Position numbers and translations under genes: made by a program. From a virus (taxonomy: Duplodnaviria; Caudoviricetes): 57,885 nt of DNA. Position 1 is the stretch's first letter, and every line of letters starts with the position of its first letter. Under the pieces are notes generated by a model. It was not told the origin of the DNA. It ran no database searches and worked only from the letters and a program-made list of their open reading frames with translations. Below, piece after piece: positions 3-56,426 of this stretch. The stretch covers positions 1-57,885 of IMG/VR virus record IMGVR_UViG_3300036900_000090. One strand, given 5' to 3'.

Positions 3-125
3 ATCCACGACGACATCGTGGACGCGCTGTCCGGCGCGTTCGGCGTGGTCGGCCTGGGGCAGAAGGGCATCGTCATATCGCCCGAGGCCATGAGCCGCTT
101 CGCGACCCGCGTGGTGCACCGCTGA
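3..125 (+). CDS. terL: Terminase large subunit, C-terminal fragment (5' truncated)
   Basis: Frame from nt 3 reads IHDDIVDALSGAF...HR*. HDDxxDA is the RNase H-like nuclease motif at the end of TerL. The stop overlaps the portal ATG (TGATG). Confidence 0.85.
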   Translation: MHDDIVDALSGAFGVVGLGQKGIVISPEAMSRFATRVVHR

Positions 126-3100
126 TGCTTCGCCTGCTGCCACGCCTGCGCCGTGCGCCCGCACCGGCCCCGCGGCCGCGCGTCGAGCCTACCGTGACAT
201 GGCCGCAGCGCGCGCCGATGCGCGTCTCGCTCTCCGCGCTCGCCGCCAGCCTGAGCAAGCCGGCCCCGCTCGAGCCCAAGGTCAATCCGTTCCAACTGCC
301 GCGCTATCCCAAGGGCGTGCTGCCGGGTGGCCGCACCGAACTGGCGATGGACGAGAACACGACGCAGATCGTCGCCTCGGCCTGGGACTTTGGTGCGGCG
401 ATTCACGGGCTCTGGGCCGAAGGCATCGGCTTCATGGGCTACCCGTATCTGGCCGAGTTGAGCCAGCGGGCCGAATACCGCCGCGCGTCCGAGGTGATCG
501 CCGAGGAAATGACGCGCAAGTGGATCAAGCTCAAGGCCACCGGCGAGAACGACAAAACCGACAAGATCAAGGTGCTCAACCAACGCCTCGACCAATTCAA
601 GGTGCGCGAGGCATTCCGCGAGGCGCTGGAGCACGACGGCTTCTTCGGCCTGGGCTTCCTCCTGCTCGACTTCGACGACGACGACGCCGAGCTGCGCACG
701 CCGCTGGCGATCACGCCGGAGAAGATCGGCCGGCATCGGCTCCGCGCAATCAGGGTGGTCGATCCCACATGGACCGCGCCCAACCGCTACGACGCGCGCG
801 ATCCGACCTCGCCGTCCTTCTACCGGCCGCAGAGCTGGTTCGTCATGGGCCGCGAGATCCACGCCACTCGCATGATGTCGATGGTGTCACGCCCGCTGCC
901 CGACATCCTCAAGCCGGCGTTCAACTTCGGCGGCCTGTCGCTGTCGCAGATGATGAAGCCCTACGTGGACAACTGGCTGCGCACCCGCCAATCGGTGTCC
1001 GACCTGATCAACGCCTTCACCGTGTTCAACCTGTCGACCAACCTCGAAGGGCTGCTGGCCGGTGCCGGCGGCGAGGCCGAGAACCAACGCCTTGAAATCA
1101 TGACCAACATCCGCAGCAACCGCGGCATGTTGGTGACCGACAAGAACACCGAAGAGCTGAAGAACATCTCGGCGCCGTTGGGCACCCTCGATCACCTCCA
1201 GGCGCAATCGCAGGAGCACATCTGCTCGGTTATTGCCGTGCCGTTGGTCAAATACCTCGGCGTCACGCCCTCCGGTCTGAACGCCAGCGCCGACGGCGAA
1301 ATCCGCGTGTTCTATGACGGCATCAAGGCGCGCCAGGAGAAGGTGTGCGGCGATCGCGTCCGCACCATCCTGCGCGTGCTGCAGCTCGACGAGTGGGGCG
1401 AGATCGATCCCGAGATCGACTACGAGTTCGTGCCGCTGTGGGAGCTGGACGAGGCGGGCGCCGCCACGGTGCGCAAGACCAACGCCGACACCGATCAGGT
1501 GCTCACCACCCTGGGCGCGATCGACCCCGACGAGGTGCGTCAGCGCATCGCCGCCGAGCCGGACAGCCCCTATGCCGGGCTCGACCTGAGCAAGCCGGCG
1601 CCGGGCCCGCCGCAACCGCCGGGCGGCGAGGGCGGCGAGGGCGGTATGCCGCCCGGTGGAGGCCAGGACACCGACCCGGCCACGTCGGAGGCGATTCTGT
1701 CCGCGTTGCGCGGTCAGGGCATGTCGGATGCGACCGCGCAGGCCTTGTTCGATGCGCTGCAGATCGGCGGAACCGAGGACGATGCCGGGCAGGCGTTCCT
1801 CGACGCGCTGCGCGGGCCGGATGGCGTCATCCTCGACACGCTGCGCGACAAGGCCGGCGATCCGACCGGCAAGATGTTCCTCGACGCCTTGCGCGGGAAG
1901 CCCGACGCGGCCCGGGTGATGCTCGACGCGCTGGCCGCCGACGCCGCGATCGAAGCGGACCCCGACGAGCGCGAGGCGTTGGAGGACGACGAGGCCAGGA
2001 TCGCCACCGTGCTGGCCGAGTTGGGCATCGCCGAGGACGCGGCGGCCTGGGAGGAAACGAAGCATCCGCGCGACGACGACGGCAAGTTCGGATCAGGCGG
2101 TGGTGGGGGTGGTGGCGGTGGCAAGGCGAAATCGCACTCGCTGCCCGACCATCCGGCGTTCCTCGACAAATACGCCAAGGGCATGAAGGCGATCGTCACG
2201 GGCGGCGTGGCCTATGGCGAGACACCGAAAGAGATCGGCGACAAGATCAAGGCGTTCGTCGGCCAGTTCGCGCACGGCTCGATCGCCAAGTACGGCAACA
2301 CGGTGCTCGGCGCGATCGAGAAGGGCAACGGGCTGCCGAAGGGCTCGCTGGGCGAGGCGAAGCCGAAGGGCAAAGGCGCGACGCCGATGCCGGCCGCGAA
2401 GCCAGCGCCCAAGCCGGCAGCGCCCAAGCCGCAGGCAGCATCGCCAGCCGACCTCGACGAACCTGCGCCCGACTATGAATCGGATATGGACGTCGAGGGA
2501 CCAACGCCGCACGCTGGTTCCGTGCCGCAGCAGGCCATCCACGCGATCGCCACCGGCCCCGGCACCGACGCCGAGAAGATCGCGCAGATCAAGGCCAATT
2601 CGATCGTGCAGGGCTACCCGCACGGCTTCACCGCGCAGTTCGCGAAGGAATGGATCAAGGCGCTCGGCGGCAATACCGACGACATGGGACCCGCCACCTC
2701 GCCCGCGCCCACGCCGGCTAAACCGAAGGCGACCAAGGCGAGCGGCGCGACCGTCCCCGGCACGGCGAAAGGCGCCCCTGGCGTGACGACGCACAACGAT
2801 CCCGACGTGATCCAATGGGCCAGCAAACTGTTCGGCAGCGCGGCCAAGCCGTCGAGCACCAGTTCCGCCGGTGCCAAGAAGATTGCCCCGTCGCTGGAAA
2901 AGTCGTTCTGGGGCAGGGTGCCGGCTGTCGCGAAATCGGCACTCACGTCGTACCAGGGCACCGGCCACCACGCGATGAACGGCGTGCTGCGCGGCCAGAT
3001 CGATCCGGCGCACACCGATGCGGTCGGCAAGATCAAGGCGGTGCACAAGCTGTTTCAGGACGAGGCGACGAAGCTCACCGAGGACGTCATCATGCGCCGC

Positions 3101-3415
3101 GGTGTTGGCGTCTTCGATCCCAAGCTGGTGCCGACATGGAAAACGCAACTGGCTCACGGTCTGCCCTGCATCTACACCGCGGAAGGTTTCGTCTCGGCGA
3201 GCATGGCCGATCAGGCCGCGTTCAGCAGCAAGCCCCTGATCTTCGAGATGATCTGCCGCAAGGGCACCCGGGCGATCGGCGTTGACGGGATGAAAGACAT
3301 TGGCGAGAACGAATTGCTGCTGTCGCACGGGCAGCAGTTCGAGGTCTACGAGATCAAGGAAGCCACCCATCAAACCGTGATCCGCATGGTCTCGGGCAAG
3401 GCGCTGGAGGATTGA
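125..3415 (+). CDS. Portal protein (DUF1073-type) fused to a C-terminal ADP-ribosyltransferase domain
   Basis: Follows terL. Portal motifs FMGYPYLAELSQRAEY...MTRKWI, IHATRM, PLVKYLGVTPSGLNAS, FVPLW, PDEVRQRI in the first ~490 aa. ART motifs YQG..MNGVLRG, MRRG (3092), GFVSAS (3185), ENELLL (3305). Confidence 0.9.
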   Translation: MLRLLPRLRRAPAPAPRPRVEPTVTWPQRAPMRVSLSALAASLSKPAPLEPKVNPFQLPRYPKGVLPGGRTELAMDENTTQIVASAWDFGAAIHGLWAEGIGFMGYPYLAELSQRAEYRRASEVIAEEMTRKWIKLKATGENDKTDKIKVLNQRLDQFKVREAFREALEHDGFFGLGFLLLDFDDDDAELRTPLAITPEKIGRHRLRAIRVVDPTWTAPNRYDARDPTSPSFYRPQSWFVMGREIHATRMMSMVSRPLPDILKPAFNFGGLSLSQMMKPYVDNWLRTRQSVSDLINAFTVFNLSTNLEGLLAGAGGEAENQRLEIMTNIRSNRGMLVTDKNTEELKNISAPLGTLDHLQAQSQEHICSVIAVPLVKYLGVTPSGLNASADGEIRVFYDGIKARQEKVCGDRVRTILRVLQLDEWGEIDPEIDYEFVPLWELDEAGAATVRKTNADTDQVLTTLGAIDPDEVRQRIAAEPDSPYAGLDLSKPAPGPPQPPGGEGGEGGMPPGGGQDTDPATSEAILSALRGQGMSDATAQALFDALQIGGTEDDAGQAFLDALRGPDGVILDTLRDKAGDPTGKMFLDALRGKPDAARVMLDALAADAAIEADPDEREALEDDEARIATVLAELGIAEDAAAWEETKHPRDDDGKFGSGGGGGGGGGKAKSHSLPDHPAFLDKYAKGMKAIVTGGVAYGETPKEIGDKIKAFVGQFAHGSIAKYGNTVLGAIEKGNGLPKGSLGEAKPKGKGATPMPAAKPAPKPAAPKPQAASPADLDEPAPDYESDMDVEGPTPHAGSVPQQAIHAIATGPGTDAEKIAQIKANSIVQGYPHGFTAQFAKEWIKALGGNTDDMGPATSPAPTPAKPKATKASGATVPGTAKGAPGVTTHNDPDVIQWASKLFGSAAKPSSTSSAGAKKIAPSLEKSFWGRVPAVAKSALTSYQGTGHHAMNGVLRGQIDPAHTDAVGKIKAVHKLFQDEATKLTEDVIMRRGVGVFDPKLVPTWKTQLAHGLPCIYTAEGFVSASMADQAAFSSKPLIFEMICRKGTRAIGVDGMKDIGENELLLSHGQQFEVYEIKEATHQTVIRMVSGKALED

Positions 3416-3419
3416 GCCG

Positions 3420-3599
3420 ATGGCGAAAGAGCCAACGACCCCGCGTGACGAATTCGGCGGCCTCGCCTCGGTGGGCGACGACGTGATCTATGACGGCACC
3501 GCCGCCACCCTGGGCACCCCGCCGCTGAAGAAAACCACCGAGCTGGTGAACATCGACGACCTGCCCGATCCCGAGGGCGACGACGCCACCGAGGACTGA
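3420..3599 (+). CDS. Small acidic protein, 59 aa (not in ORF track)
   Basis: MAKEPTTPRDEFGG...DDLPDPEGDDATED*. GGAGG upstream and stop coupled to the MuF ATG (TGATG), so it fills the gap exactly. Confidence 0.7.
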   Translation: MAKEPTTPRDEFGGLASVGDDVIYDGTAATLGTPPLKKTTELVNIDDLPDPEGDDATED

Positions 3600-4411
3600 T
3601 GCCGCGCCGCCCGATCCACACGGGCGGGAAACCGCAGGTTCTCGCGGCCGTCCGTCCGAACGTCGGGCTTGAGGCGGGCTACCGCCGCGCGCTCGACACG
3701 CTGCTCGCCGACATGCACGCCTCGCTGACGCACTTCCTCACCGCGCAATACCGCCGCAACCCGCCCGTCATGGCCCAGGACAGCCCGGCGTCGGACATGG
3801 CGGCGGCGATGCGGATCCTTCGGCGACGCTGGCAGTCGCGTTTCGACATCGCCTCACAACGGCTGGCGAAGCACTACGGCAAGACGATCGCGAAACGCTC
3901 GGACGCGCAGCTGCAGGCGATCCTCAAACGCGCCGGCATCGCGGTCGAATTCAAGATGACGCCGGCGATGACCGACATCCTCAACGCGACGATCAGCCAG
4001 CAGGTCGGGCTCATCAAGTCGATCGGCGCCGAGCACTTGGCCCAGGTCGAGGGGCTGGTGATGCGCAGCGTGCAGCAGGGCGGCGACCTCGCGACGCTGA
4101 CCCGCGAGCTGCAGAAGCGCTACGGCGTGACGAAGAAGCGGGCCGCGCTGATCGCCCGCTCGCAGAACAGCATGGCGACCGCCTCGATGACCCGCGCGCG
4201 TCAACAGGAACTCGGCATGACCGAGGCGGTCTGGCTGCACAGCCATGCGGGCAAGGAGCCGCGCGAGACCCACATCGCCAATAGCGGCAAGACTTACAAC
4301 GTGGCTGAGGGTTGGTACGATCCCGATCCGCGCGTGCGCGAGCGCATCTGGCCTGGGCAGCTCATCAACTGTCGCTGCGTGTCGAAACCCATCGTGCCAG
4401 GATTCACATGA
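3599..4411 (+). CDS. Head morphogenesis protein (MuF / SPP1 gp7 family)
   Basis: RAALIARSQ, WLHSHAGKEPRETH and PGQLINCRC C-terminal motifs; position after the portal. Confidence 0.92.
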   Translation: MPRRPIHTGGKPQVLAAVRPNVGLEAGYRRALDTLLADMHASLTHFLTAQYRRNPPVMAQDSPASDMAAAMRILRRRWQSRFDIASQRLAKHYGKTIAKRSDAQLQAILKRAGIAVEFKMTPAMTDILNATISQQVGLIKSIGAEHLAQVEGLVMRSVQQGGDLATLTRELQKRYGVTKKRAALIARSQNSMATASMTRARQQELGMTEAVWLHSHAGKEPRETHIANSGKTYNVAEGWYDPDPRVRERIWPGQLINCRCVSKPIVPGFT

Positions 4412-4970: not shown

Positions 4971-7391
4971 ATGCCTGACGGCTCGCTCGGCGCGTTGTTC
5001 TGCCGCGCGCTGGCGCAGGACGCGCGGGCCGACCACGAGGATCTGCATCGCGTGCTGTCCGACCTGCTCGCCTACGAGCACTGGTGGCGCGCGACCGATC
5101 CGGCGCAGGACGCCGATTGGAAAGAGTCCGATCATCCCCGCTCGGATGACGGCAAGTTCGGCAGCGGCGGGGGAGGCAGCAGCAAGACCGCCTCGCAGTC
5201 GTTCGGCAAGAAGGGCGACAAGCCGCCCGCATCGCTGAACGGCGTCGCCTTCGCCTCATGGAAACCGCCATCGGACGCGATGGGCTGGGAGAACGCAGCA
5301 GAGGAAGGCCCGGGCTTCGCCGAGCCCGCGCCGCCCAAGCCGCCGACCTACACCGACGACAAGGGCAAGACGCACGAGAAGAAGCTGGGCGCCGGGGTGA
5401 TCATCCGCGAACCGGACGGGCGCGTGTGGATCATGCACCCGACCAACGCCTACGGCGGCTACAAGGCGACCTTCCCGAAGGGCGGCATCGACAAGGGCTA
5501 TTCGCCGCGGGCGACCGCGCTCAAGGAAGCCTTCGAGGAAACCGGCCTGCGCGTCGAGCTGACGGGCTTCGCCGGCGACATCGAACGCGACACCTCGATG
5601 GCGCGCTACTACTTCGCCAAGCGCATCGGCGGGACGCCGGCCGACCACGGCAAGGAGGCCGAGCGGATCACGCTGGCCCCGGTGGGCGATCTCAAGACGC
5701 ACCTCAACCGCAGCGTCGATCGCAAGATGGTCGACACGCTGCTGGGCGACGCGGGCACCAAGCCCGCCGCTGCACCGAAGCCGGGCGCTACGCTCGACCT
5801 CGCCTCGATGAAGCAGATCGGCGGCAAGCTCGGATCGAACCCAGGCGGGCGCTATCAGGACGCCAGCGGCAAGCAGTACTACGTCAAACAGTCGAAGAGC
5901 CTCGACCACGCGAAGAACGAGCTGCTGGCCGCGCGGCTCTATGAGGCGGTCGGCTCGCCGGTGCTCGCGGCGATGCCGGTCAAGATGGGCAACAAGCTCG
6001 GCACGGCGACGGAGTGGCAGAAGTCCACGCCGATCGATCGGCATGATCCGGCGCAGCGCAAGGAAGCGCAGGCGCATTTCGCAACCCATGCCTGGCTGGC
6101 GAACTGGGACGCTGCCGGGCTCGAGTACGACAACCAGGGCCGCGTCGGCGGGAAGATGACGACGCTCGATCCGGGCGGCTCGCTGCTGTTCCGGGCGCAG
6201 GGCGGGCCGAAGGGCTCGGCGTTCGGCAACAGCGTGGGCGAGTGGGATTCGCTGCGCAGCCCGTCGAACGCGCAGGCGCATCGCATCTTCGGCGAGATGA
6301 CCCCGGCGCAGCTCAAGGCGTCGGCCGCACAGGTGACGAAGGTGCCCGACGCGACGATCCGCGCGCTGGTCGAGGAGCACGGCCCGGGCACGGCGGAACA
6401 GCGCAAGGCGCTGGCCGACAAGCTGATCGCCCGCAAGGCGGACATCGCGAAACGCGCGGGCGCGGTGGCGCAGGACGCGGAATTCAAGGAGAGCGACCAC
6501 CCGCGCAGCGACGATGGCAAGTTCGGCTCGGGCGGCGGCGGGGCGGCACCGGGCAAGGGCAAGGCATCGCTCGGCAACGCAGGAACGATGAAGCCGTTGG
6601 CGAAGGGCACGACACCGCCCGCGCATATCGCCGCATTGAAGGTGCCGCCGGGCTGGTCGGACGTGCACTACAACCCCGACCCCAAGGGCTCGCTGCTGGT
6701 CACCGGCCGCGACGCCAAGGGCCGACGCACCGCGATCTACTCCGGCGAGTTCTCGGCGGCCAATGCGGCGGCGAAGTTCGCGCGCGTCAACGAGCTGATG
6801 CAGAAGTTCGACGCCATCGCCAAGCAGAACGACGCGGCGAAGAAGGACCCGGCGAAGCGCGATGTCGCCGAGGCGCTTGAGCTGGTGATGAAGATGGGCA
6901 TCCGCCCCGGCAGCGAGCGCGACACGGGCGCCGACAAGCAGGCGTATGGCGCGACGACGCTGGAAGGCCGGCACGTGCGCGTGACGTCCACCGGCAAGGT
7001 GTCGCTGCAGTTCACCGGCAAGAAGGGCGTCGATCTCAACCTGCCGGTCGAGGACGCAGGGCTGGCGAAGATGTTGGCGCGGCGCAAGCTGAAGGCAGGG
7101 GCCAAGGGCAAGCTGTTCGGCGTGACCGACGCCGCGCTGCGCGAGCACTCGCACGACATGGACGGCGGCGGCTTCAAGACGAAGGACTTCCGCACGCATC
7201 TCGGCACCAAGACCGCGATGGGCGAGGTCGCACAGCGGGATGCCCCGGCATCGCCCACCGCCTACAAGCGCGCGGTGCGCGAGGTGGCGAAGGTCGTCGC
7301 GTCGAAGCTCGGCAACACCGCCGCGGTTGCGCTCCAGGCGTACATCGCGCCCGAGGTGTTCTCCGAATGGCGGGCGGCGGCTGGCGCATGA
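4971..7391 (+). CDS. Multidomain polyprotein: Nudix hydrolase + PI3/4K/HipA-like kinase fold + DNA topoisomerase IB
   Basis: Nudix box GGIDKGYSPRATALKEAFEETGL (5481-5549). Kinase-like GSNPGG..YYVK..NE..HAWLANWD..DN..LDPGGSL. Topo IB pentad R6903, K7020, R7191 (KDFRT), N7314 (LGNT), Y7341 (YIAP). Confidence 0.88.
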   Translation: MPDGSLGALFCRALAQDARADHEDLHRVLSDLLAYEHWWRATDPAQDADWKESDHPRSDDGKFGSGGGGSSKTASQSFGKKGDKPPASLNGVAFASWKPPSDAMGWENAAEEGPGFAEPAPPKPPTYTDDKGKTHEKKLGAGVIIREPDGRVWIMHPTNAYGGYKATFPKGGIDKGYSPRATALKEAFEETGLRVELTGFAGDIERDTSMARYYFAKRIGGTPADHGKEAERITLAPVGDLKTHLNRSVDRKMVDTLLGDAGTKPAAAPKPGATLDLASMKQIGGKLGSNPGGRYQDASGKQYYVKQSKSLDHAKNELLAARLYEAVGSPVLAAMPVKMGNKLGTATEWQKSTPIDRHDPAQRKEAQAHFATHAWLANWDAAGLEYDNQGRVGGKMTTLDPGGSLLFRAQGGPKGSAFGNSVGEWDSLRSPSNAQAHRIFGEMTPAQLKASAAQVTKVPDATIRALVEEHGPGTAEQRKALADKLIARKADIAKRAGAVAQDAEFKESDHPRSDDGKFGSGGGGAAPGKGKASLGNAGTMKPLAKGTTPPAHIAALKVPPGWSDVHYNPDPKGSLLVTGRDAKGRRTAIYSGEFSAANAAAKFARVNELMQKFDAIAKQNDAAKKDPAKRDVAEALELVMKMGIRPGSERDTGADKQAYGATTLEGRHVRVTSTGKVSLQFTGKKGVDLNLPVEDAGLAKMLARRKLKAGAKGKLFGVTDAALREHSHDMDGGGFKTKDFRTHLGTKTAMGEVAQRDAPASPTAYKRAVREVAKVVASKLGNTAAVALQAYIAPEVFSEWRAAAGA

Positions 7392-7545: not shown

Positions 7546-7764
7546 ATGAGCGACCCGCCAACCTGCCGGCGCTGCGAATACTGGCTGCCCGGCACGCTCG
7601 ACATGATCGAGACCGCCGCCGTCGGCGAGTGCCTGTCCAAGCACAGCCACGTCGATCGCGCGCCCGCCGATCACTTCTGCCCACACTTCAGCGAGGACGC
7701 GAACCGCTATGAGCGAGCGCCTTCCCGCACCCGAACTACCCGACGCGCGATGGGGCACGGCTGA
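7546..7764 (+). CDS. Small Cys-rich putative metal-binding protein
   Basis: GGAGG at 7530; CRRC..GEC..FCPHF pattern. The 3' end overlaps the protease ORF start. Confidence 0.5.
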   Translation: MSDPPTCRRCEYWLPGTLDMIETAAVGECLSKHSHVDRAPADHFCPHFSEDANRYERAPSRTRTTRRAMGHG

Positions 7765-9412
7765 GACGCCGCTGCCCGACTGGCGGGAGTCGGACTCTGG
7801 CGACACCGACGACGATCCCGACGACGAAGAACTGGCCGAGACCCCGGCCGAGATAATCGCCGCGCTCGGCTTCGATCCGCTCGAAGAGGACGACGAAGGC
7901 GAGGACGCGGATCCGTTCGTCGCCGCACTCGCGCAGGACGCCGACCTCGCCTTCGACCGCTCGGTGCGCAGCTACGATCAGAACGGCCATTTGCACGTCG
8001 CCCTGGCGCCGATCAGCAAGGCCGTGGTCAACGAATACTACGGTCACGAGATACCCGACGCCGACCAGCTCGGCCTCGATCCCAACCGCCGCTATCGCCT
8101 CTACCGCGATCCCGACGAGCTGGCGAAAGCCGCCGACACGTTCAACGGCAAGCCGATCCTGCTCAAGCACCAGCCGGTCAGCGCCGACGCGCATCCGCGC
8201 GACCTGACCATCGGCTCGATCGGCTCCGGTGTGCGCTACGAGCACCCCTACCTGCTCGGCCCGCTGTCGATCTGGGATCGCGATGCGATCGACGGGATCG
8301 AGAACGAGGACCGCAAGCAGCTTTCCGCCGCCTACCGCTACCGCGCCGACATGACGCCCGGCGTGGTCGACGGCCAACGCTTCGATGGCGTCATGCGTGA
8401 CATCGCAGGGAACCACGTCGCTCTCGTACCGGAGGGGCGTGCTGGGGCGGATGTCGTTGTCGGTGATTCAAAACCCAAGGAGCCACCAACCATGCCCGCA
8501 GCCAAGCCCGCGGCCAGGGAGCGCATGTCGCGTCAGGCACTGTACGTGTCGGCTGCGTGCACTGCCTATGCGCTGCCGAAACTCGCGACCGATCAGAAGA
8601 TGCCCGACATGCGGGCGCTGCTGAAAGGCGTCGATGTAAAGACGTGGAAGGCCAAGCGCCCCGCGTTCGAGACCGCCTTCGGCAAGGCGCTGTCACCGCG
8701 CCTCGCGGCCGATGCCTCGATGGAGGACTTTCACAGCTTCCTCGACGGATTCAGCAATGGCGGCGAGGGCGGCGCTCCCGCTTCGGCCGAAGAACTCGCC
8801 GACGATCCGCTGAAGCCCAAGACCGCCGATGCCGAGCCGTTCGAGGGCGAGGAAACCCCCGACGAAGAGCTGCTGGAATCCGACACGCCGGCCGGCAAGC
8901 TGATGACGTTCCTGCAATCGGTCCTCACGCCGGAAGAACTCGCCCAGGCCAAGGCCATCGCGCAGGGCGGTGGCGAGCAGCAGCAGGCCGCGCCGCCCGA
9001 CAACGGCGGTGGCAACGGCGAAGGCGAGGACCAAGGCCATTCGGAGAACTCAGACATGAACGACAAGCCGCCCGTCGTCACCAAGCCGGCGATGGACGCC
9101 GCGATCGAGGCAGCCGTGAAGGCCGAGCGCACGCGCGCGTTGGCCGTACGCGAGGCCGAGCAGGTGGTGCGGCCGTATATCGGCAACCTCGCCATCGCGC
9201 AGGACACCGCCGAGGGCGTCTATCGCCTCGCGCTCGATCAGCTCGGCGTCAAGGTGGACGGCGTTCACCCGAGCGCCTTCCGCACCATCCTCGAGATGCA
9301 GCCCAAGCCCGGCGATCGTCAGCGGGCGACGGAATTCGTCGCGATGGATGCCGCGCAGAGCAAGGACTTTGCCGAGCGCTATCCCGGCGCGCTGTCGTTG
9401 AAGCGCGTCTAA
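7709..9412 (+). CDS. Prohead protease/scaffold (DUF2213 family)
   Basis: ISKAVVNEYYGHEIP, LYRDPDEL, KQLSAAYRY, NHVALVPEGRAG motifs, followed by an acidic low-complexity scaffold region. Confidence 0.92.
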   Translation: MSERLPAPELPDARWGTAETPLPDWRESDSGDTDDDPDDEELAETPAEIIAALGFDPLEEDDEGEDADPFVAALAQDADLAFDRSVRSYDQNGHLHVALAPISKAVVNEYYGHEIPDADQLGLDPNRRYRLYRDPDELAKAADTFNGKPILLKHQPVSADAHPRDLTIGSIGSGVRYEHPYLLGPLSIWDRDAIDGIENEDRKQLSAAYRYRADMTPGVVDGQRFDGVMRDIAGNHVALVPEGRAGADVVVGDSKPKEPPTMPAAKPAARERMSRQALYVSAACTAYALPKLATDQKMPDMRALLKGVDVKTWKAKRPAFETAFGKALSPRLAADASMEDFHSFLDGFSNGGEGGAPASAEELADDPLKPKTADAEPFEGEETPDEELLESDTPAGKLMTFLQSVLTPEELAQAKAIAQGGGEQQQAAPPDNGGGNGEGEDQGHSENSDMNDKPPVVTKPAMDAAIEAAVKAERTRALAVREAEQVVRPYIGNLAIAQDTAEGVYRLALDQLGVKVDGVHPSAFRTILEMQPKPGDRQRATEFVAMDAAQSKDFAERYPGALSLKRV

Positions 9413-46867: not shown

Positions 46868-47088
46868 GGCCGTGCCTCCTGCTGCGCGAACTGCGCCGGG
46901 GCTGGCATGTGACACGCCCCAGGATTGGCGCATTGGCCGGTCTGGCAGCATTCCGGCACGTCGCATCGCCACGGGTTGCTCAGCCCGTGCGCCGTCGAGA
47001 TACGGCGCTTGCTCTTGATGTGCTGGTGCAGGTCCGTGGTGTTGGCGAAGAGGCGCGGGCAGTAGGGGCAGGGGATGGAGCGGGTCAT
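46864..47088 (-). CDS. C2H2-like zinc-finger protein
   Basis: CPYCPRLF....LHQHI. Confidence 0.65.
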   Translation of the reverse strand: MTRSIPCPYCPRLFANTTDLHQHIKSKRRISTAHGLSNPWRCDVPECCQTGQCANPGACHMPAPAQFAQQEARP

Positions 47089-48794
47089 GCGCCCGCTCCC
47101 GCTTCCTCCTGCTTTCGGCGCCGGCGCGGTCGCGCGACGACCGGCTCGGGTGCCTCGGGTTCCGCCTCCGGCTCGTCGTCCTCGGGCTCGGCATCGAGGT
47201 CGTACGGCTCGTAGACCTCGGGGGCCTTCGCGCCGAACTCCAGCGGGCGCCAGTCGGGCAGTGCGCCGATCAACCGCTTGCGTACGTCACCCACCTTGCC
47301 GCTGGAATCGATGCCGTGCGCCTCGGCGATCTCGATCAGCTTCTCGCCGCTGAACCCCTTGAGGATTTCCTCGGTGTCGCAGCGGTCGGTGTGCTTGCCG
47401 GCGTCGAAGAAGACGCCCAGCCATTCCGCCGCGTCGCCCGACGTGCCGAAGTTGGTGTTCGGGTGGTCGAAGGCGATGATGTGGCCGATCAGCTCGTAGG
47501 CGATGGCGGCGGTTTCCTGCGGCGACAGCGGGCGCACCGTGCCGTCCTTGTCCAGCAACTTCGTCAGAACGTTGTACTGCCCACGCGGAGTGCCGCCCGC
47601 TCGCGGCGAGACAGCCACGTTGTCGGCCAGGAAGCAGAGCAACAGCGCCTTCAACGCGACCAGCGCGGTGTCCGGCGCCGCCTCCATCGCCCGCCGCAGC
47701 GCCTCGCCCTTCATCGCGGCGAGCTTGCCTTGCACCGCCTTGGTGATCGGATCGCGCGCGGCGCGGGTGGGCGGACCATCCTCGAACGCCTCGGCGGCAT
47801 CGTGCCCGTTCGCCGCCGATGCTTTCGCGACCTTCGGCGTGACGACGCGCTCGCGCACCTGCCCGATGTAGTAGCCCTCGGTGGCGACCGCCGCGACCAC
47901 CTTGCGCGGGTCGTCCTTCTTCCAGCGCTTCGGCACGTCGTCCCACAGCAGCGTGTAGCCGGCGGGTGCGACCATCTCGCTGTGCGCGCCCATCGTGCCG
48001 GCGATGATGCGCCCCTTGCTCGCCGCGATGCGCGCCTCGAGCGCCGCCTGCTGCGCGGCCAGGAAGCCCTTGGTGTCGGTCGTGGTGAACTGTTCCTCGC
48101 TGCCGGGCTCGGCGAAAAGGTCCTCGTCCCACGCGATCAGCTCGTGCGGGAACACGGCGAGGGAACGGCTGATGCGCGTGCGGGAACATGCCTGCACGAC
48201 CAGATGCCAGGGGAACCCGATGCCGGCCTTGCCGCGCTGCTTGCGCGCCGCAGCGGCCGCGGCCTCCTGTACGTCCTGCGGTGCGGTAGCGATCACCCGC
48301 AGGTCGCGCGTCTGCGGCAGCTCGGGCGATTCGGCGATCGCTTCCAGCACCGCCGGCGCCATGCGGCCCAGCCATTCCAGGCGGCGGGCCAGGGTCATCG
48401 CGATGCCCAGCGCGTCGGCCGCCCCTTCGAGCGAATAGCCGCGATCCATCAGCGCGGTGACGGCGCGCCACTGGTCGACCGGGTGCATCCCGGCGCGCAC
48501 CATGTTCTCGGCCGCCGAGGCGGCGATCGCGTAGTCGGCCTTGTCCTCGCCGTTCTCGCAGCGGAACTCCACCGCTTCGATTTCGGTCCAGCCAAGGCTT
48601 GCCGCCGCAGCGACGCGACGGGTGCCGGCGACGATCAGCCAGCCACCCTCGCGGTCCTCGCGCACCACGATGGGCTGCAGCTGGCCGACCGCCTTCATCG
48701 AGGCGGCGAGCCGGGCGATGTGATCGGGGTCGGGCGAGGCGACGTGGCGCGCGTTGGAGGGATCGGGCGCCAGCCTCGAAAGCTCGATGTTCAT
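47085..48794 (-). CDS. parB: ParB/RepB/Spo0J family protein (long form)
   Basis: P.NAR, LAASM..VGQLQPIVV, IVAGTRRVAA, AENMVR..MHPVDQW.A, HTH. Confidence 0.88.
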   Translation of the reverse strand: MNIELSRLAPDPSNARHVASPDPDHIARLAASMKAVGQLQPIVVREDREGGWLIVAGTRRVAAAASLGWTEIEAVEFRCENGEDKADYAIAASAAENMVRAGMHPVDQWRAVTALMDRGYSLEGAADALGIAMTLARRLEWLGRMAPAVLEAIAESPELPQTRDLRVIATAPQDVQEAAAAAARKQRGKAGIGFPWHLVVQACSRTRISRSLAVFPHELIAWDEDLFAEPGSEEQFTTTDTKGFLAAQQAALEARIAASKGRIIAGTMGAHSEMVAPAGYTLLWDDVPKRWKKDDPRKVVAAVATEGYYIGQVRERVVTPKVAKASAANGHDAAEAFEDGPPTRAARDPITKAVQGKLAAMKGEALRRAMEAAPDTALVALKALLLCFLADNVAVSPRAGGTPRGQYNVLTKLLDKDGTVRPLSPQETAAIAYELIGHIIAFDHPNTNFGTSGDAAEWLGVFFDAGKHTDRCDTEEILKGFSGEKLIEIAEAHGIDSSGKVGDVRKRLIGALPDWRPLEFGAKAPEVYEPYDLDAEPEDDEPEAEPEAPEPVVARPRRRRKQEEAGAGA

Positions 48795-49129: not shown

Positions 49130-49409
49130 GACCGGATGCCGTCCTGACGGCATTGGACAAGCTCAGCCCGCACGTCTCGATCAGCAGCGCGCCCGTCACC
49201 ACCGGATCGGGGTGCGCCATGCAGACCGTGGTGAACATGCTGCCGATCAGCGACGGCCACATCTCCGACGGCACGCCGTTGAAGATGTCGGTCATCCTGC
49301 CCACCGCATCGTTGAGCTGCGCGCGCTCAGCTGGCGAGGGCGGGCGGCCCTGCACGACGGACTCGGCGATGATCGAGCCGTCGGGCTGGCGGGTGTACGT
49401 CGCGCTCAT
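49122..49409 (-). CDS. Hypothetical protein
   Basis: Coupled ORF. Confidence 0.55.
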   Translation of the reverse strand: MSATYTRQPDGSIIAESVVQGRPPSPAERAQLNDAVGRMTDIFNGVPSEMWPSLIGSMFTTVCMAHPDPVVTGALLIETCGLSLSNAVRTASGHA

Positions 49410-51352
49410 CGCTGTTCTCCCGGCGCGGCCGGCAACTCGTTGTGCTTCTTGCCGAACGCGGCATCGGCGCGGGCGAACAGCTCGGGATCGTCCGCGCGCA
49501 GGCGTGCCATCACGGTGCGCGTCGCCGTCGAACGTATCAGGGAGTCGAAGTGCATCCGCCCAGCCGGCGTGTCATCGATCGCCGCGAGGTCGGCCAAGCG
49601 ATCGGCCAGCCACTTCTCGTCCTTCTGCCGCTGCGTCGGCATGGCGATCAGGTCGGCGAGCCAGCCGGGCGGTGTGCGGTCGGCCTTGACGAAGCGTTGG
49701 GTGATCGCCTGGACCGCGAGCGCGCGCTGCGCCAGCGGGCATTCGGCGAGCCGTCCGCGCTGCGCCTCGGTGAACGCCAGCAGGTCGAGCACATCGACGG
49801 TCGCCAGCTCGTCGCGCAGCAGCGACAGCCATGTGGGCCAGCTCGGCTTGCCGTTGGACTTCGGCACGTCGATCGCCGCGAAGGTCATCGGCGGCGGCGA
49901 ATCCGCAGTGCCCGATTCGTACTCGCTCTGTTCTCCGGTTTCGTCGGTGTAGCCGTGCTCGCCCACCGCGTCGGGATCGAAGCCTGGGTCGCTCTCGCCA
50001 GAGTCCCCACCCTGATCTTCTGCGGGCGGCGGCTCGTCGAGCGCGCGGAGCAGCTGCGCCGCCTCGGGCACCGCGCGCGCCTGATCGATCGCGTCGGCAT
50101 TGTGCTCGATCAAATTGGCCGCGTCGGTCGCGTGGGCGCCGATGCGCTGGTACTCGCCGATCAGGGTGCGAGCGAACTCCACGGGATCGGTGAACGTCTC
50201 GGCGCCGATCTCGCCCCACGCGCTGATCAGCACCGCCTCGAACGGCGGCGGCGATTTGGCTGTTGGCGTTGTCGCAGGACCGGGTTTCGGGGAAACCCGT
50301 TGACTTCCGCCGGTGCTGGCCTGTTGACGCGCGGGGCGCGCCTTCGGGTTCTGTTGCGTCGTGCCCTGATCAACAGGCGGCGGGCGGCGGTCGGTATGGG
50401 CGGTGCCGGGATCGGGTGGCCCGCCGTCGTCACCGTCGTCGGCCGGTTGCTCGGGAATCCCATCAATCGGCGTCGCGGTGCCGTCGATCACCGGGCCATA
50501 GTCCAGCTTCTTGCCCGCGTCGTGCGCGTCCTCGATGCCGATGCCGGCTTGCAACTCGGGGCACTTGGGCAGCAGTTTCGCCAACCGGCGGATCGCTGTC
50601 TTGCGCGCCATTTCGCCCGGGTGGGCGACCCACGGCGCTGCGGTCCATCCGGTTCCCGGACGCTGACCGTCCGCCTCGGCCTTTTCCTTGACGCGGAGGG
50701 CGGTCTTGTAGGCTTCGCTGCGATTCCTGATCCGCTCAATCTCGGGCCAGGGCATTACCTCGAATTCTTCGCCGTCGTTCGTGAACTTGGCGATGGCGTA
50801 GGCCGCGCGCGGCGTCATGCTGGACGGGTCGATGTCGAGCGATTGCTTGTGGATCAGGAAGCGCTTGGATCCGCGCTCGAAGTCGAAATGATCGCCCGGG
50901 TAGACGAGGCCGGACGCGATGTCGCGCACGAAGCCGGAGCGGAACGCCAATTCGACATAACCCTGGTAGCCGATGACGATCTGCAGGTCGTAGCCGTCAT
51001 CGACCCACCGGTTGCCCACCTTCTTTCGCTTCTTGAACGGGATCAGATGCGCGTGCTGCAGCACGGTCCCCGGCACCAGCCCGAGATAGGTGAGCGACAT
51101 GAACGCGCCGATGGTCTGGCGCAGGTCGCACTGGTAGAGCTGCGGCGTACGACCGGCAGTCTGCACGAAGGCGCGCAGCATCCGGTCGGGCTCCATGTGC
51201 TTCGGGATGGCGCCGGCGATCAGGTCTTTCAGCTCCTTGGTCTGGAACGCCTCGCCCAGCGTCTTGCATTCGGCGAGGCGCTTGAACGCGGCCTTGCTCG
51301 GAAGCTGCTGCACGTTGTTGTCGGGCGCAGGGGTCTTGGCGGTGTCGCTCAT
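49406..51352 (-). CDS. recT: RecT-family recombinase with long C-terminal extension
   Basis: IPKHM.PDRM, P.LYQC, LGL.P, IGYQG..ELA.RSG, VY.GD.F, PW..H..EMARKT.IRRL.K.LP. Confidence 0.9.
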   Translation of the reverse strand: MSDTAKTPAPDNNVQQLPSKAAFKRLAECKTLGEAFQTKELKDLIAGAIPKHMEPDRMLRAFVQTAGRTPQLYQCDLRQTIGAFMSLTYLGLVPGTVLQHAHLIPFKKRKKVGNRWVDDGYDLQIVIGYQGYVELAFRSGFVRDIASGLVYPGDHFDFERGSKRFLIHKQSLDIDPSSMTPRAAYAIAKFTNDGEEFEVMPWPEIERIRNRSEAYKTALRVKEKAEADGQRPGTGWTAAPWVAHPGEMARKTAIRRLAKLLPKCPELQAGIGIEDAHDAGKKLDYGPVIDGTATPIDGIPEQPADDGDDGGPPDPGTAHTDRRPPPVDQGTTQQNPKARPARQQASTGGSQRVSPKPGPATTPTAKSPPPFEAVLISAWGEIGAETFTDPVEFARTLIGEYQRIGAHATDAANLIEHNADAIDQARAVPEAAQLLRALDEPPPAEDQGGDSGESDPGFDPDAVGEHGYTDETGEQSEYESGTADSPPPMTFAAIDVPKSNGKPSWPTWLSLLRDELATVDVLDLLAFTEAQRGRLAECPLAQRALAVQAITQRFVKADRTPPGWLADLIAMPTQRQKDEKWLADRLADLAAIDDTPAGRMHFDSLIRSTATRTVMARLRADDPELFARADAAFGKKHNELPAAPGEQR

Positions 51353-51353
51353 C

Positions 51354-52184
51354 TCAGCGCACTCCGATCTTGCGGCTTTCCACCCAGGCGATGCCGGGGA
51401 CGATCGCGGTCGGTTTGCCGCTGCGGTCGCGCTCCTTCGCCCTCTCGCGCACCCAGGACTCGTTGACCGCCAGTGCACCGGGCGGCACGTCGCCGGCGAC
51501 CACCGCGCGGGCGAGCGCCATCATGTCCTGCAATTCCCACGACCACGACGAACGCAACGAGGCGACGGCGCCGTAGATTCCTCTAGAGCGACTGAACTCT
51601 GCCGGGCGGGCCTGCGCCTCGTCGGCCGCGCGGTCCGCCTCGGCTGCGGATGCGGCGGCGGCGTCGAGTTTGGCGTCAACGTCCTGGCCGACCGGGTTGC
51701 GTTTCATCGCGGCCGCGGCCTCGGCGGCACGTCGCTGCGCCTCGGCCTCCGCCTCGCGACGGAGACGCTCGGCCAGGGCACGTTGGGCGGTTTCCTTGCG
51801 GGTGGCGTAGTCGAACATGACGCGCTCGACCGGGGCGACCGCCGCCTGGATCGGCTCGGCGAAGCGGCGGAACCACGCATCGACCGCGCGCCCGCCTTCC
51901 AGATACGGCTCCTTGTGGTCCTTGCGGTTCTTCTCGCCGGTGCCGATCAGCGCCTTCGCCATGCGGGCGTTCTCGGCGCAGAGCCCGGCGGTGTCCTCGT
52001 CGCCGTCGTCGATGCGCGGGTGTGCCGCGAGCGTGCGGGCCAGCGCGGGGATGATCTCGTCGTCGCGCCGCCGCAGCAGCGGCTCCAGCAGATAGTCGAG
52101 ATAGGCGACGACCTGCTCGGGCGAGAGCGGGGCGGGCGGCGGCGGGGCGTTGGTGTCGCGATCGTGGGCAAGGCTTTGGCTCAT
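51354..52184 (-). CDS. Coiled-coil protein next to recT (possibly Gam/Gp157-like)
   Basis: RK..KEPYL..GRAVDAWF, long Ala/Glu/Arg coil, VPGI at the end. Confidence 0.65.
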   Translation of the reverse strand: MSQSLAHDRDTNAPPPPAPLSPEQVVAYLDYLLEPLLRRRDDEIIPALARTLAAHPRIDDGDEDTAGLCAENARMAKALIGTGEKNRKDHKEPYLEGGRAVDAWFRRFAEPIQAAVAPVERVMFDYATRKETAQRALAERLRREAEAEAQRRAAEAAAAMKRNPVGQDVDAKLDAAAASAAEADRAADEAQARPAEFSRSRGIYGAVASLRSSWSWELQDMMALARAVVAGDVPPGALAVNESWVRERAKERDRSGKPTAIVPGIAWVESRKIGVR

Positions 52185-52552
52185 GGTGTCCTCGGTTGAA
52201 GCGGTGAGAGCCGCGCGGGATTGATCGCCCGGGTAGGATTCAGCGCCGGGTGATCGTCCGGCCCATGTGCGGCGGCATGGGCCTTCACGGCGAGCAGCCA
52301 ATCGTAGGTCTGCTCGTCGATCTTGGTGCCGTAGGCGTGGACGTCGCTCACGCCCTCGGCGAGGAAGGGATCGGCGTGCGGGCTGTGCTCGCAGCCGTCG
52401 ATGATGGCGAAGAATTCGCCGTCGTCCGTGCGGACGATGCGGGCCGGTACCGCCCATGCGCCACGCCGCAGCCGCAGCCGATAGAAGCCCGGCTCGACCA
52501 CGTCGGATCGCCGTGTCTGCTCTCTGCTGTGCCGCTCGCCTGTTGCTCTCAT
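52181..52552 (-). CDS. Hypothetical protein
   Basis: EPGFYRLR..GAW.VPARI; coupled. Confidence 0.65.
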   Translation of the reverse strand: MRATGERHSREQTRRSDVVEPGFYRLRLRRGAWAVPARIVRTDDGEFFAIIDGCEHSPHADPFLAEGVSDVHAYGTKIDEQTYDWLLAVKAHAAAHGPDDHPALNPTRAINPARLSPLQPRTP

Positions 52553-52580
52553 GGTGTCCCGCCGCTATGCAATAGCGCAC

Positions 52581-54774: not shown

Positions 54775-55350
54775 GTGCCGCTGGATCAATCAGCGGGCGA
54801 TGTGCCCGCCCTGCGTTCTATTGCCGCGATCCAGCACGGCGTCATCGCGCTCGACCTGAGCAGCACCGTCGGCTGGGCCTATGCGCCGCTCGATGCGCTG
54901 CGCCCGATCACCGGCACCTGGCATCTGCCGTTCGTCGGCGGCGAGGGCGCCCGGTATGCGGCGTTCGAGAACGAGCTGGCCGCCGCGATGGACCGCTGGC
55001 AGCCGAGCAAGATGGTGCTGGAGGCGCCGCTGCCGCTGCCGGCGATGAACAACTGGCGCACCGCCTGCCAGCAGTTCGGTCTCCGGGCGATCGCCTTCTC
55101 GGAAGGCTGGCGGGCGAGCTGCGCCGTGTCCGAGGTCGATGTCCACACCGCGCGCGCCGAGGTCATGGGCCAGCGCCGGCTCGGCAAGGACGTGGTCAAG
55201 CGCGAGGTAACGCGGTTCTGCCTGGGCCGCGGCATCAAGGTGAACAGCCACCACGCGGGCGACGCGGCGGTGGTGTGGATTTGGCACCAGCAACGGCTTC
55301 GCGGGATTCCGCCGTGCGCCGGGCCGCTCTGGCGGGGGGCAATGCAATGA
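54775..55350 (+). CDS. RuvC-like Holliday junction resolvase
   Basis: IALDLSS.VGWA, VLEAP, K..V, HHAGDA. Confidence 0.8.
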   Translation: MPLDQSAGDVPALRSIAAIQHGVIALDLSSTVGWAYAPLDALRPITGTWHLPFVGGEGARYAAFENELAAAMDRWQPSKMVLEAPLPLPAMNNWRTACQQFGLRAIAFSEGWRASCAVSEVDVHTARAEVMGQRRLGKDVVKREVTRFCLGRGIKVNSHHAGDAAVVWIWHQQRLRGIPPCAGPLWRGAMQ

Positions 55351-56426
55351 GCGCTGCAACGCGCAAGGTGACGGCGATTCCTCGCATGGTCACTGCGAGA
55401 GTGAGCACCGACGATCTAAGTCGGCACCCCGAATCTCAGATACGCGCCGAACCCGATCCGTCTTTGATCGCCGAATATGCCGAGGCGATGATCGAAGGCG
55501 CCGAGTTTCCGCCGGTGGTGATCTACCAGGATCAGGATGGCACGAAGTACCTCGCCGACGGTCACCATCGGGTCGATGCTGCTGCGCTGGCGGCGCTGAA
55601 GGACTCACGCCGCCGGGCAGAGGTCTTGGCAGAGATCAGGCCAGGCACGCTGCAAGATGCACTGCGACACGCCCTGCAGGCGAACACGTTGCACGGCAAA
55701 CGGCTTTCCCAGGCCGACTACCGGCGCGCAATACGGATGGCGTTCGACAACGGCCTTGTGACGGTCGAGCGTGCTGCAGACATCGTGCCGGCCCTCGTCA
55801 CGCTCACCGGATGCAGCGTTCGCACCGCGCAGGAGAACTCCATCGCCGAGCGTCGTGCGATGATCTCGAAGCGCGACCGGATGATCTGGGCGATGCACCG
55901 CGAGGGCCGGAGCCAGGAGGCGATCGGCGCCGAGCTAGATGTTGATCACAGTACTGTCTCGCGGGTGATCGATCGTGTGCAGAACCGCGATGCCGCGGAA
56001 ACGCACAAAGCCCTGCGCCCCAAGCCGCCCAAGGCGTGGCCCGAGCAGGAGACGCCTGCCGAACCGATCGCGGCCGAGGCGCCGCCGGTCGAGGATGCGC
56101 CCCGATATCGGGTGGATGTCGGACCGTACCTGCCGTTGCTGGCGCGTCTGGCGCCACTCGCGGTCGATGATGAGGACAGCGGCACGGTCGGCGTATTGCC
56201 CGACGTCCCCGACACTGAGGATGACGGCGAGGACGATCCGCGCGCGGTCAAGGCGTTGGAGACGATCGATCGGACCCTGACGACGGCGCTCGACCGCCTC
56301 GACAACCTCGCAGGCCTTCGCCAGCCGTTCCGTCCGAAAGCGGCTGAAGCCGCGCTCGCCAAGATCGAGCGGGCACAGGATTTCCTCGACGAACTCCGGG
56401 CACACATCGAAGGAGAATCAGCGTGA
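55347..56426 (+). CDS. ParB/Srx-like N-terminal domain + HTH protein
   Basis: FPPVVIY..YLADGHHRV.A..AN..HG..LS; SQEAIGAELDVDHSTVSR. Confidence 0.8.
   Translation: MSAATRKVTAIPRMVTARVSTDDLSRHPESQIRAEPDPSLIAEYAEAMIEGAEFPPVVIYQDQDGTKYLADGHHRVDAAALAALKDSRRRAEVLAEIRPGTLQDALRHALQANTLHGKRLSQADYRRAIRMAFDNGLVTVERAADIVPALVTLTGCSVRTAQENSIAERRAMISKRDRMIWAMHREGRSQEAIGAELDVDHSTVSRVIDRVQNRDAAETHKALRPKPPKAWPEQETPAEPIAAEAPPVEDAPRYRVDVGPYLPLLARLAPLAVDDEDSGTVGVLPDVPDTEDDGEDDPRAVKALETIDRTLTTALDRLDNLAGLRQPFRPKAAEAALAKIERAQDFLDELRAHIEGESA

Follow-up and report, generated by a model that had tools for sequence, protein, structure and literature searches.

A phage portal protein carrying a predicted ADP-ribosyltransferase, and a glycine-rich peptide tag at the joints of putative head-borne enzymes

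Fusions of portal and MuF head proteins to effector domains, known as 'polyvalent proteins', have been recognized by comparative genomics (PMC5512222, Iyer et al. 2017; PMC9503650, Iyer et al. 2022), and the text of PMC5512222 names portal fusions to PBECR, 2H and InPase domains. Here we describe a portal protein fused to an ADP-ribosyltransferase (ART). Its gene lies at positions 125..3415 (+) of the virus record IMGVR_UViG_3300036900_000090 from IMG/VR, which was analyzed as a whole (57,885 bases, classed as linear, completeness estimate 74%) and is hereafter called the window. As in the polyvalent proteins, a head protein carries a C-terminal enzymatic effector of the kind thought to be packaged and injected. 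The fusion adds a member to a class already described by comparative genomics; the rarity implied by the original prediction, which had been made from the sequence of this stretch, was too high, since the arrangement recurs in databases (27 of 119 listed relatives) and the class is named in the literature. The papers on polyvalent proteins consist of comparative genomics only, and their relevant passages contain neither the H-P-R..G-K-F tag that marks the portal-ART junction of the window nor a small inhibitor of a portal-borne ART. Their supplements and figures may, however, contain this very architecture.

Among characterized enzymes, the T4 protein Alt is an ART of the R-S-E type that belongs to the Alt/VIP2 clade, is packaged in the head, is injected with the DNA and modifies host RNA polymerase, as told in the text of PMC5512222. 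The ART of the window is likewise of the R-S-E type, and Alt-like phage enzymes are among its structural matches; however, it is part of the portal polypeptide, and its sequence is too unlike that of Alt for BLAST-type methods to pick up the similarity. Alt itself is a free protein: a short N-terminal signal targets it to the capsid and is cleaved off by the head protease. In a Bacteroides stercoris prophage, the antibacterial ART Bxa is fused to MuF, is blocked by the binding protein Bsi, and has its effect reversed by the hydrolase BAH, according to the text of PMC11699363. The window resembles that system in having an ART on a phage head protein and a small adjacent protein that is predicted to bind it, and differs in that the carrier is the portal instead of MuF and that no ADP-ribosylhydrolase was found in the window. 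The toxins C3, VIP2, iota Ia and CDTa share the fold (TM 0.65-0.74) and the order of helix, R, S-x-S and ARTT loop. C3 and the binary toxins are, however, only ~15-20% identical to the window ART, which lacks a secretion or cell-binding part and resides in a phage head gene; C3 has Q-x-E where the window ART has E-N-E.

The portal-ART gene is a single open frame of 1096 amino acids (aa) without a stop, with M32 as an alternative start. Its portal core (aa 105-480; 437..1564, +) is homologous to the solved portal gp19 of phage E217 (PDB 8fvh, E 3.9e-37) and was modeled by AlphaFold2 (AF2) with pLDDT mostly between 85 and 97. Within it, the Pfam family Phage_portal_3 (PF06381, DUF1073 type) matches aa 107-458 (nt 443-1498) with an E value of 3.4e-81 over 355 of 357 profile positions, and the PHROG portal family matches the protein at E 2e-103. 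The N-terminus is conserved from residue 1 in a database relative, P0005.

The ART domain (aa 887-1092; 2783..3400, +) is defined by Pfam, conserved residues, AF2 and Foldseek. Four motifs occur in frame and in the order that had been proposed: the NAD-binding helix Y943-QGTGHHAMNGVLRG-957 (Y943...M-N-x-x-L-R-G957, nt 2951-2995), the catalytic R992 in IMR-R992-G (nt 3098-3100), the S-x-S motif in GFV-S1024-A-S1026 (nt 3194-3202, with S1024 at 3194-3196) and the E-x-E motif in G-E1061-N-E1063-LLL (nt 3305-3313). ADPrib_exo_Tox (PF03496) matches aa 932-1084, scoring 38.9 bits when the full 1096 aa are searched and 44.5 bits with the isolated domain (curated cut-off 23.4), and reaches 42.9 bits in a six-frame search of the window; PHROG 3895, 'ADP-ribosyltransferase exoenzyme toxin', matches at E 3e-9. 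With PF06381 at one end, PF03496 above its cut-off at the other and the conserved residues in place, the proposed fusion of a portal to an R-S-ExE ART holds.

Relatives of the ART were sought with residues 900-1096 among 1.84 billion representative proteins. There were 178 at E <= 0.001, 56 of them at E <= 1e-10, and in almost all relatives the match is found at the C-terminal end of a protein of 400-3400 residues. An alignment was made of the domain and 60 of 150 listed relatives (P0123-P0182); it omits P0016, P0008 and P0013, which are of similar rank and are all portal fusions. At least 90% of its rows (61 clade members) retain each of the following: the helix residues Y, N, L and R, then R-G, G-F-x-S and E-x-E. 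PF03496 is matched by 59 of the 61.

The AF2 model of the domain has a pLDDT of 94.5 and a pTM of 0.89. Searched with this predicted model, Foldseek returned 145 PDB chains at E <= 0.001, and every listed one is an ART (TM 0.65-0.74). They include C3bot1 (E 8.7e-12), the Listeria ART effector 8za7 (E 1e-11, TMq 0.73), VIP2 (1qs2; E 2.8e-10, TMq 0.72), iota, CDTa and Certhrax. Among the BFVD matches were ARTs on MuF or 'minor capsid' proteins, one HK97-type portal of 1201 aa, and Alt-like RNA-polymerase ARTs of T4-like phages (E 4e-9 to 2e-7). The comparison with VIP2 and Alt that had been suggested as a check is thus borne out on both sides, by VIP2 itself and by Alt-like phage enzymes. In sequence alignments, R, S-x-S and E-x-E fall on R, S-T-S and Q-x-E of C3, and on E-A-E of Lmo0066. 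Altogether, sequence and model support a complete R-S-ExE ART of the C3/VIP2/Alt type, and very probably an active ART fold. ExE is a marker of arginine-directed ARTs; by this rule the enzyme would modify arginine of host proteins, a specificity that we consider somewhat favored.

Portal and ART belong to one continuous gene. The G+C content at third codon positions (GC3) in this frame is 0.85-0.95 across the folded segments, from portal core to ART (0.90 in the capsid gene), and 0.67-0.84 in the short Gly/Pro-rich stretches of tag and linker. A Logan contig (run X1, 12,688 nt, depth 87.7) spans nt 1400-3700 with 0 differences and no gap. This contig is a separate assembly, but run X1 may be the source run, so that it checks the assembly and is not an independent sample. 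Runs X2-X4 gave mostly ~33-nt matches with unlike flanks; the related-looking pieces are one of 238 nt, identical to nt 3106-3343 (X2), and two diverged ones of 150-210 nt. Of 7,996 candidates scored when long relatives of the full protein were sought with a word index, 833 had E <= 0.001, and the best 120 were listed. According to their Pfam column, PF06381 and PF03496 occur together in 27 of the 119 proteins other than that of the window. One relative, P0004 (1126 aa, on a 22.7-kb contig), is 53% identical over portal, linker, tag and first helical module, and aligns again over the second helical module and the ART, also with 53% identity.

A search of 50,697 phage records gave 687 with a match to the portal part, and in no record did the match extend over 80% of the portal-ART protein; in a tblastn search of phage records, only two Microbacterium phages match this ART clade. 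The cultured Pseudomonas phage Orisa01 encodes a 703-aa 'hypothetical protein' (coding sequence 2270-4381) with PF06381 and PF03496 (E 5e-19), and the tag is located between the two. Such independent relatives with both domains indicate that the fusion is real; an assembly artefact, which had been named as a possible refutation, is contradicted by the separate assembly and by the shared layout of the homologues.

If the ART is part of the portal, its position in the virion depends on where the C-terminus of the portal points. The gp19 portals of the Pseudomonas phages E217, Pa193 and PB1 (PDB 8fvh, 9b41) have a homologous core and the same gene order, with C-terminal extensions of ~240 residues that are invisible in cryo-EM. 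According to the text of PMC10329688, the model of the E217 portal covers residues 97-528 out of 765, with the C-terminal helical barrel pointing into the head; according to that of PMC11456595, residues 529-765 of the Pa193 portal are without cryo-EM density. Because the C-termini of these relatives point into the head, the extension of the window protein should hang inside the capsid. By this analogy the ART would lie inside the capsid behind the portal, not outside the vertex, and with a dodecameric portal up to 12 copies per virion are a fair estimate. That the ART is carried in the head through the portal we hold with good confidence. The extension of PB1 resembles an InPase domain by eye, a likeness that is unscored, and contains no ART and no tag; the annotation of the PB1-type portal gene (gp18 of Pseudomonas phage PB1, L004:2112-4421) reads 'minor head protein'. 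Uncharacterized portal cargo is present even in well-studied therapeutic phages, as the part of Pa193 without density illustrates.

The junction between portal and cargo is marked by a peptide tag (aa 641-667; 2045..2125, +), A-W-E-E-T-K-H-P-R-D-D-D-G-K-F-G-S followed by a run of glycines, which is predicted to be disordered. The motif [FW]-x-E-x-x-H-P-R-x-x-x-G-K-F-G plus glycines occurs in three copies in the head module. One is in the portal, and the other two are in gene 4971..7391, at nt 5109-5195 before a NUDIX domain and at nt 6474-6560 before a topoisomerase. The three copies vary at synonymous sites; hence the peptide is conserved, and not merely the DNA.

Comparison with relatives places the tag at points of cargo exchange. 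P0005, the closest portal among the best 120 of the 833 relatives, is almost the same protein as far as the tag. Its similarity to the portal-ART protein stops just behind the tag, and a Zeta-toxin domain follows. Among the matches listed, the same portal family carries Zeta toxin, TopoIB, InPase, NUDIX and other domains. The closest ART (59-60% identity) belongs to P0003, whose more than 1650 residues comprise a portal, then GNAT, NUDIX, kinase-like and helical modules, and finally the ART. Gene 4971..7391 of the window encodes NUDIX and kinase-like parts similar to those of P0003. Unrelated effector domains on a virion protein, encoded in a late block and shuffled among relatives, are the features by which polyvalent effectors are known, and the window and its relatives display them. 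P0003 had been considered as a portal-free polyvalent protein, and this was ruled out: the public gene call of 1428 aa begins at an internal Met, and in the DNA (L123:1-4971) the frame continues upstream into a PF06381 portal. As this call is too short, some 'portal-free' carriers of this ART clade in databases may be truncated calls as well.

In a loose form, the tag motif occurs 138 times in 267 fetched proteins. Of the 119 long portal homologues, 68 have it, in most cases after 500-700 residues. IMG/VR was scanned with a DNA pattern that specified only H-P-R-x-x-x-G-K-F-G and found at least 117 stretches. The unspecified upstream [FWY]-x-E is also present in 106 of the 127 in-frame matches among those listed, which fall in 97 open reading frames (ORFs), and the ORFs can be divided by the position of the tag. 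Where the tag is at least 450 residues in (43 ORFs), the families are those of portals: PF06381 in 27, PF05136 (lambda-type portal) in 9 and Portal_Mu in 1. The other 54 ORFs have the tag nearer the start and include NUDIX (8), DUF2213 (7), PF03496 (5), topoisomerase I (4), Zeta toxin (3) and Acb1 (1). With narrow local probes, a DUF1073 portal, MuF or DUF2213 gene was also seen in 25 of 53 loci of the latter group. One ORF (L024:955-5016) contains five tags. A full tag is found upstream of the DUF2213 domain in at least 7 IMG/VR ORFs, for example L008:484-2904.

Judged by this distribution in sequences, the tag is a widespread mark of joints between carrier and cargo and between cargo and cargo. 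It may serve as a cutting or release site, for which its presence at every joint, its predicted disorder and the swap point directly behind it would speak. Two further tag-like stretches in the head module were considered and rejected. 'HPRD' in the DUF2213 domain of the window is not conserved in four other DUF2213 proteins and is attributed to chance. Near the likely maturation region of the capsid protein, W-K-N-D-D-G-F-R recalls the tag, but five close capsid relatives keep only D/E-E-[FW]-[KR]; because they lack the rest of the motif, the idea that the tag copies the capsid cut site receives no support.

Searches for the tag in solved structures gave insignificant matches only. By tblastn in cultured phages, 7 records were found at E <= 1, all in portal-type genes; a second such search found no match, short glycine-rich queries being a weak probe. 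No description of the motif was found in the literature by motif spellings, which does not prove that the tag is undescribed, and in the body text of PMC5512222, figures and supplements apart, 'GxF' has 0 matches and 'HPR' occurs only within 'HHPRED'. The tag as a general cargo joint may be new.

Directly behind the ART, a 59-aa acidic protein (3420..3599, +; GC3 0.88) is a candidate ART inhibitor or immunity protein. Its ORF begins 5 nt past the ART stop, and its own stop overlaps the ATG of the MuF gene. A small ORF follows the ART in 3 of the 3 loci with downstream DNA in view, namely the window, L122 and L124, and in the latter two it is a homologue (46% identity) directly behind a related ART. 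The L124 homologue has 70 aa, and its start overlaps the ART stop. In L122 (4594-5187) the homologue has 197 aa and is extended by a degenerate tag and ~110 further residues. L124 also has an extra ORF of 168 aa without a family match (396-902) ahead of MuF. For the 59-aa protein, IMG/VR returned only the L122 contig, there was no PHROG family, and the Atlas scores (<= 0.80) are at noise level; the 197-aa homologue has no Pfam family.

The complex of the ART domain and the 59-aa protein was predicted with ipSAE values of 0.83, 0.85 and 0.76; the best of three controls reached 0.02. The tool had been calibrated on 80 solved complexes, of which 58 attained the mark, and on 110 mismatched pairs, of which 2 did so, a rough guide only, as own alignments were used. 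The partner is modeled with a pLDDT of 72 or more, and at least 54% of contacts are common to the runs. The confidently predicted interface (domain residues 53, 55-59, 93-99, 114-122 and 124-125) takes in two residues of the NAD-binding helix, N952 and R956, together with S1024 and the catalytic R992. This model supports a protein that covers the NAD pocket and active site of the ART. On balance we lean slightly towards the small protein being an inhibitor of the ART; a predicted active-site inhibitor of a portal-borne ART may also be new.

The explanation that we regard as likely is that the window encodes a portal-borne ART of the Alt/VIP2/C3 type which is head cargo for the next infection. 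The enzyme would be made late in infection and built into the procapsid with the portal ring, in up to 12 copies; because portal C-termini point into the head, it would be loaded without a targeting signal of its own. In the producing cell, the downstream 59-aa protein would hold it inactive. During the next infection, the ART would exit the capsid together with the DNA, probably once it has been cut or pulled off the portal at or near the tag, and would ADP-ribosylate arginines of host proteins as an early takeover or anti-defense step. There it would act beside the NUDIX, kinase-like and topoisomerase IB cargo of the neighboring tagged gene. For release and injection, taken separately, we consider the chances to be even.

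Several observations weigh against parts of this explanation. Cargo that is still covalently joined to the portal could not enter the host, and the cut site is only putative. The tag follows three Pfam portal families, including that of a BPP-1-like locus in which Pfam recognized no protease among 10 ORFs scanned, and this breadth fits poorly with cutting by one particular head protease. In the monomer model the tag is not predicted to dock anywhere, and 4 of the 68 tag-bearing portal homologues end 52 residues or fewer after the tag, leaving no room for cargo. Solved ARTs match the domain only weakly by sequence (best E 0.019). As to the small protein, the protein database returned only itself and no relative of similar length, so that its alignment in the complex prediction had only 2 rows. 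Its L122 homologue, with a tag and an extra domain, suggests a packaged protein rather than a simple immunity protein. In 37 IMG/VR portal-type ORFs with the stop inside the locus, small acidic ORFs behind portal-cargo genes showed no general pattern, and searches of the window, estimated at 74% of the genome, found neither an ADP-ribosylhydrolase (PF03747) nor a Macro domain (PF01661).

The need for a cut also gives room to a different view, in which the ART, made late along with the head proteins, acts in the producing cell instead of the next host and modifies host or phage proteins near the packaging machinery, the fusion serving only to co-express or tether it. Blunting of defenses that sense portal or terminase could be one purpose. 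Where ARTs are linked to packaging genes, action in the producer is the alternative put forward in the text of PMC9503650; without a cut, portal-tethered cargo has no way out, and an adjacent cognate inhibitor, itself predicted, shows only that the enzyme matters inside the producer. The same inhibitor can, however, be turned the other way, since co-production of inhibitor and enzyme suggests that the ART is silent in that cell. In addition, the same ART clade is found on portals, DUF2213 and MuF proteins and in chains with NUDIX, kinase-like and GNAT modules, a pattern of packaged cargo, and a filled capsid would presumably hold no NAD. We therefore consider action in the producer unlikely. 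A polymorphic toxin-immunity pair of a temperate phage, directed at bacterial competition or at a bias between lysis and lysogeny rather than at lytic takeover, is a shade less probable still. A toxin-like C-terminal domain, cargo swapped at a conserved junction and a small downstream ORF predicted to bind it would suit such a pair, and the layout matches that of Bxa (PMC11699363) and of MuF toxins, of which 191 genes were followed by small ORFs in 89.4% of cases (PMC5576092), as far as the texts of these papers go. However, no integrase or repressor was seen (not every ORF was scanned, and the record is estimated to be 74% complete), the small gene resides in a late head operon with no obvious protection of a lysogen, and the neighboring NUDIX and topoisomerase IB cargo is unlike a killing toxin.

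A decayed or purely structural ART, or a long ORF that is an assembly or frame artefact of GC-rich DNA, deserves mention because long spurious ORFs are common at 67% GC (an antisense ORF of 426 aa, 2093..3373, is among those overlapping the gene) and because of the weak sequence matches to solved ARTs. That view is close to refuted: the catalytic residues are intact and conserved, the fold is confident, GC3 supports the frame across the folded segments, the second assembly is identical, and the 27 listed homologues and Orisa01 have both domains. Beyond head cargo of the kind favored here lies a bolder and rather doubtful extension, by which the tag, [FW]xExxHPRxxxGKF-(Gly)n, would be a carrier-independent signal for release or ejection. 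Any enzyme behind it would be loaded, freed and injected, and the 59-aa protein would be the first of a new family of inhibitors, which plug the active site and silence a virion-borne ART until its exit from the producer. Portals of the three families, DUF2213 head proteins and a short free leader would all be carriers.

Head-packaged enzymes are the first move of a phage in a new cell. To our knowledge, almost none has been studied outside T4, and no experimental study of a portal-borne ART was found in the literature. With a well-defined enzyme attached to a structural protein that is well understood, the locus makes a compact test case, and the predicted inhibitor would make the ART safe to clone and easy to assay. 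If functional, the tag could account for the loading and freeing of very different enzymes, and could be used to bring chosen proteins into capsids.

The ART is reached through a portal C-terminus that is lengthened by ~600 residues of beads-on-a-string modules. In the full-length AF2 model (alignment of 39 sequences, mean pLDDT 75), the core is followed by a disordered Gly/Pro-rich linker (aa 481-517) and some six short helices (aa 518-632), together 1565..2020 (+), which are common to P0005 and P0004. Their pLDDT is below 50 for aa 499-516 and 50-80 for the helices. The approximately six amphipathic helices (1676-2020, +) repeat x-(F/I)-L-D-A-L-R-G, spaced by Gly, Pro and Asp, and sit roughly where the E217 portal has its C-terminal barrel; Tandem Repeats Finder did not detect this repeat as a DNA repeat. 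After the tag-bearing stretch, which is disordered over aa 633-670, come helical module A (aa 678-745; 2156..2359, +), made of three helices with pLDDT 86-97, and helical module B (aa 800-854; 2522..2686, +; pLDDT 90-96), both shared with P0003 and P0004. A Pro/Ala/Lys linker separates the two modules, and another linker precedes the ART. The modules and the middle of the extension have no Pfam match even at E <= 10.

Between the MuF and head protease genes, a free-standing cargo gene (4971..7391, +) encodes 806 aa. The protein consists of a leader of ~50 aa, a tag, the NUDIX domain (aa 138-255), a region of ~230 aa, the second tag and a topoisomerase IB of bacterial type (aa 552-786). The ~230-aa region resembles a kinase, in that one IMG/VR relative matched PI3_PI4_kinase in Pfam; it has no match among PDB sequences. 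Downstream of the topoisomerase gene of the window there is nothing convincing as a small acidic ORF.

The source phage is an uncultured soil myovirus. The record, with a GC content of 64-70%, encodes a tail sheath, baseplate wedge proteins and tail fibers, which indicate a contractile tail. The MuF-like head protein (270 aa; 3599..4411, +) has PF04233 at aa 149-261 and matches PHROG 324, 'head morphogenesis'. It had been described as bare, and so it is, because the protein stops 9 residues past PF04233 with no further family matched. The DUF2213 protein (7709..9412, +; PF09979, E 8e-48; PHROG 2229, labeled head maturation protease in PHROGs) has a scaffold-like tail and is the sole candidate protease of the head module. 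A minor capsid protein and then the major capsid protein follow downstream (Pfam, PHROGs), and the order portal, MuF, protease, capsid is that of Pseudomonas phage PB1. No terminase gene was seen in the record, and the portal frame is open to its first base; hence the packaging genes are probably in the missing part.

Some minor observations concern the remaining proteins. The N-terminus of the DUF2213 protein is extended by a very acidic stretch of 77 residues (7709-7940, +), which contains D-W-R-E-S-D, the first half of the tag without H-P-R. Away from the head module, the window encodes two ParB-like proteins (47085-48794, -; 55275-56426, +), a RecT-like annealing protein (49406-51478, -) and an exonuclease-like protein (51354-52580, -); the RecT-like protein is fused to a long extension and has 690 aa in all.

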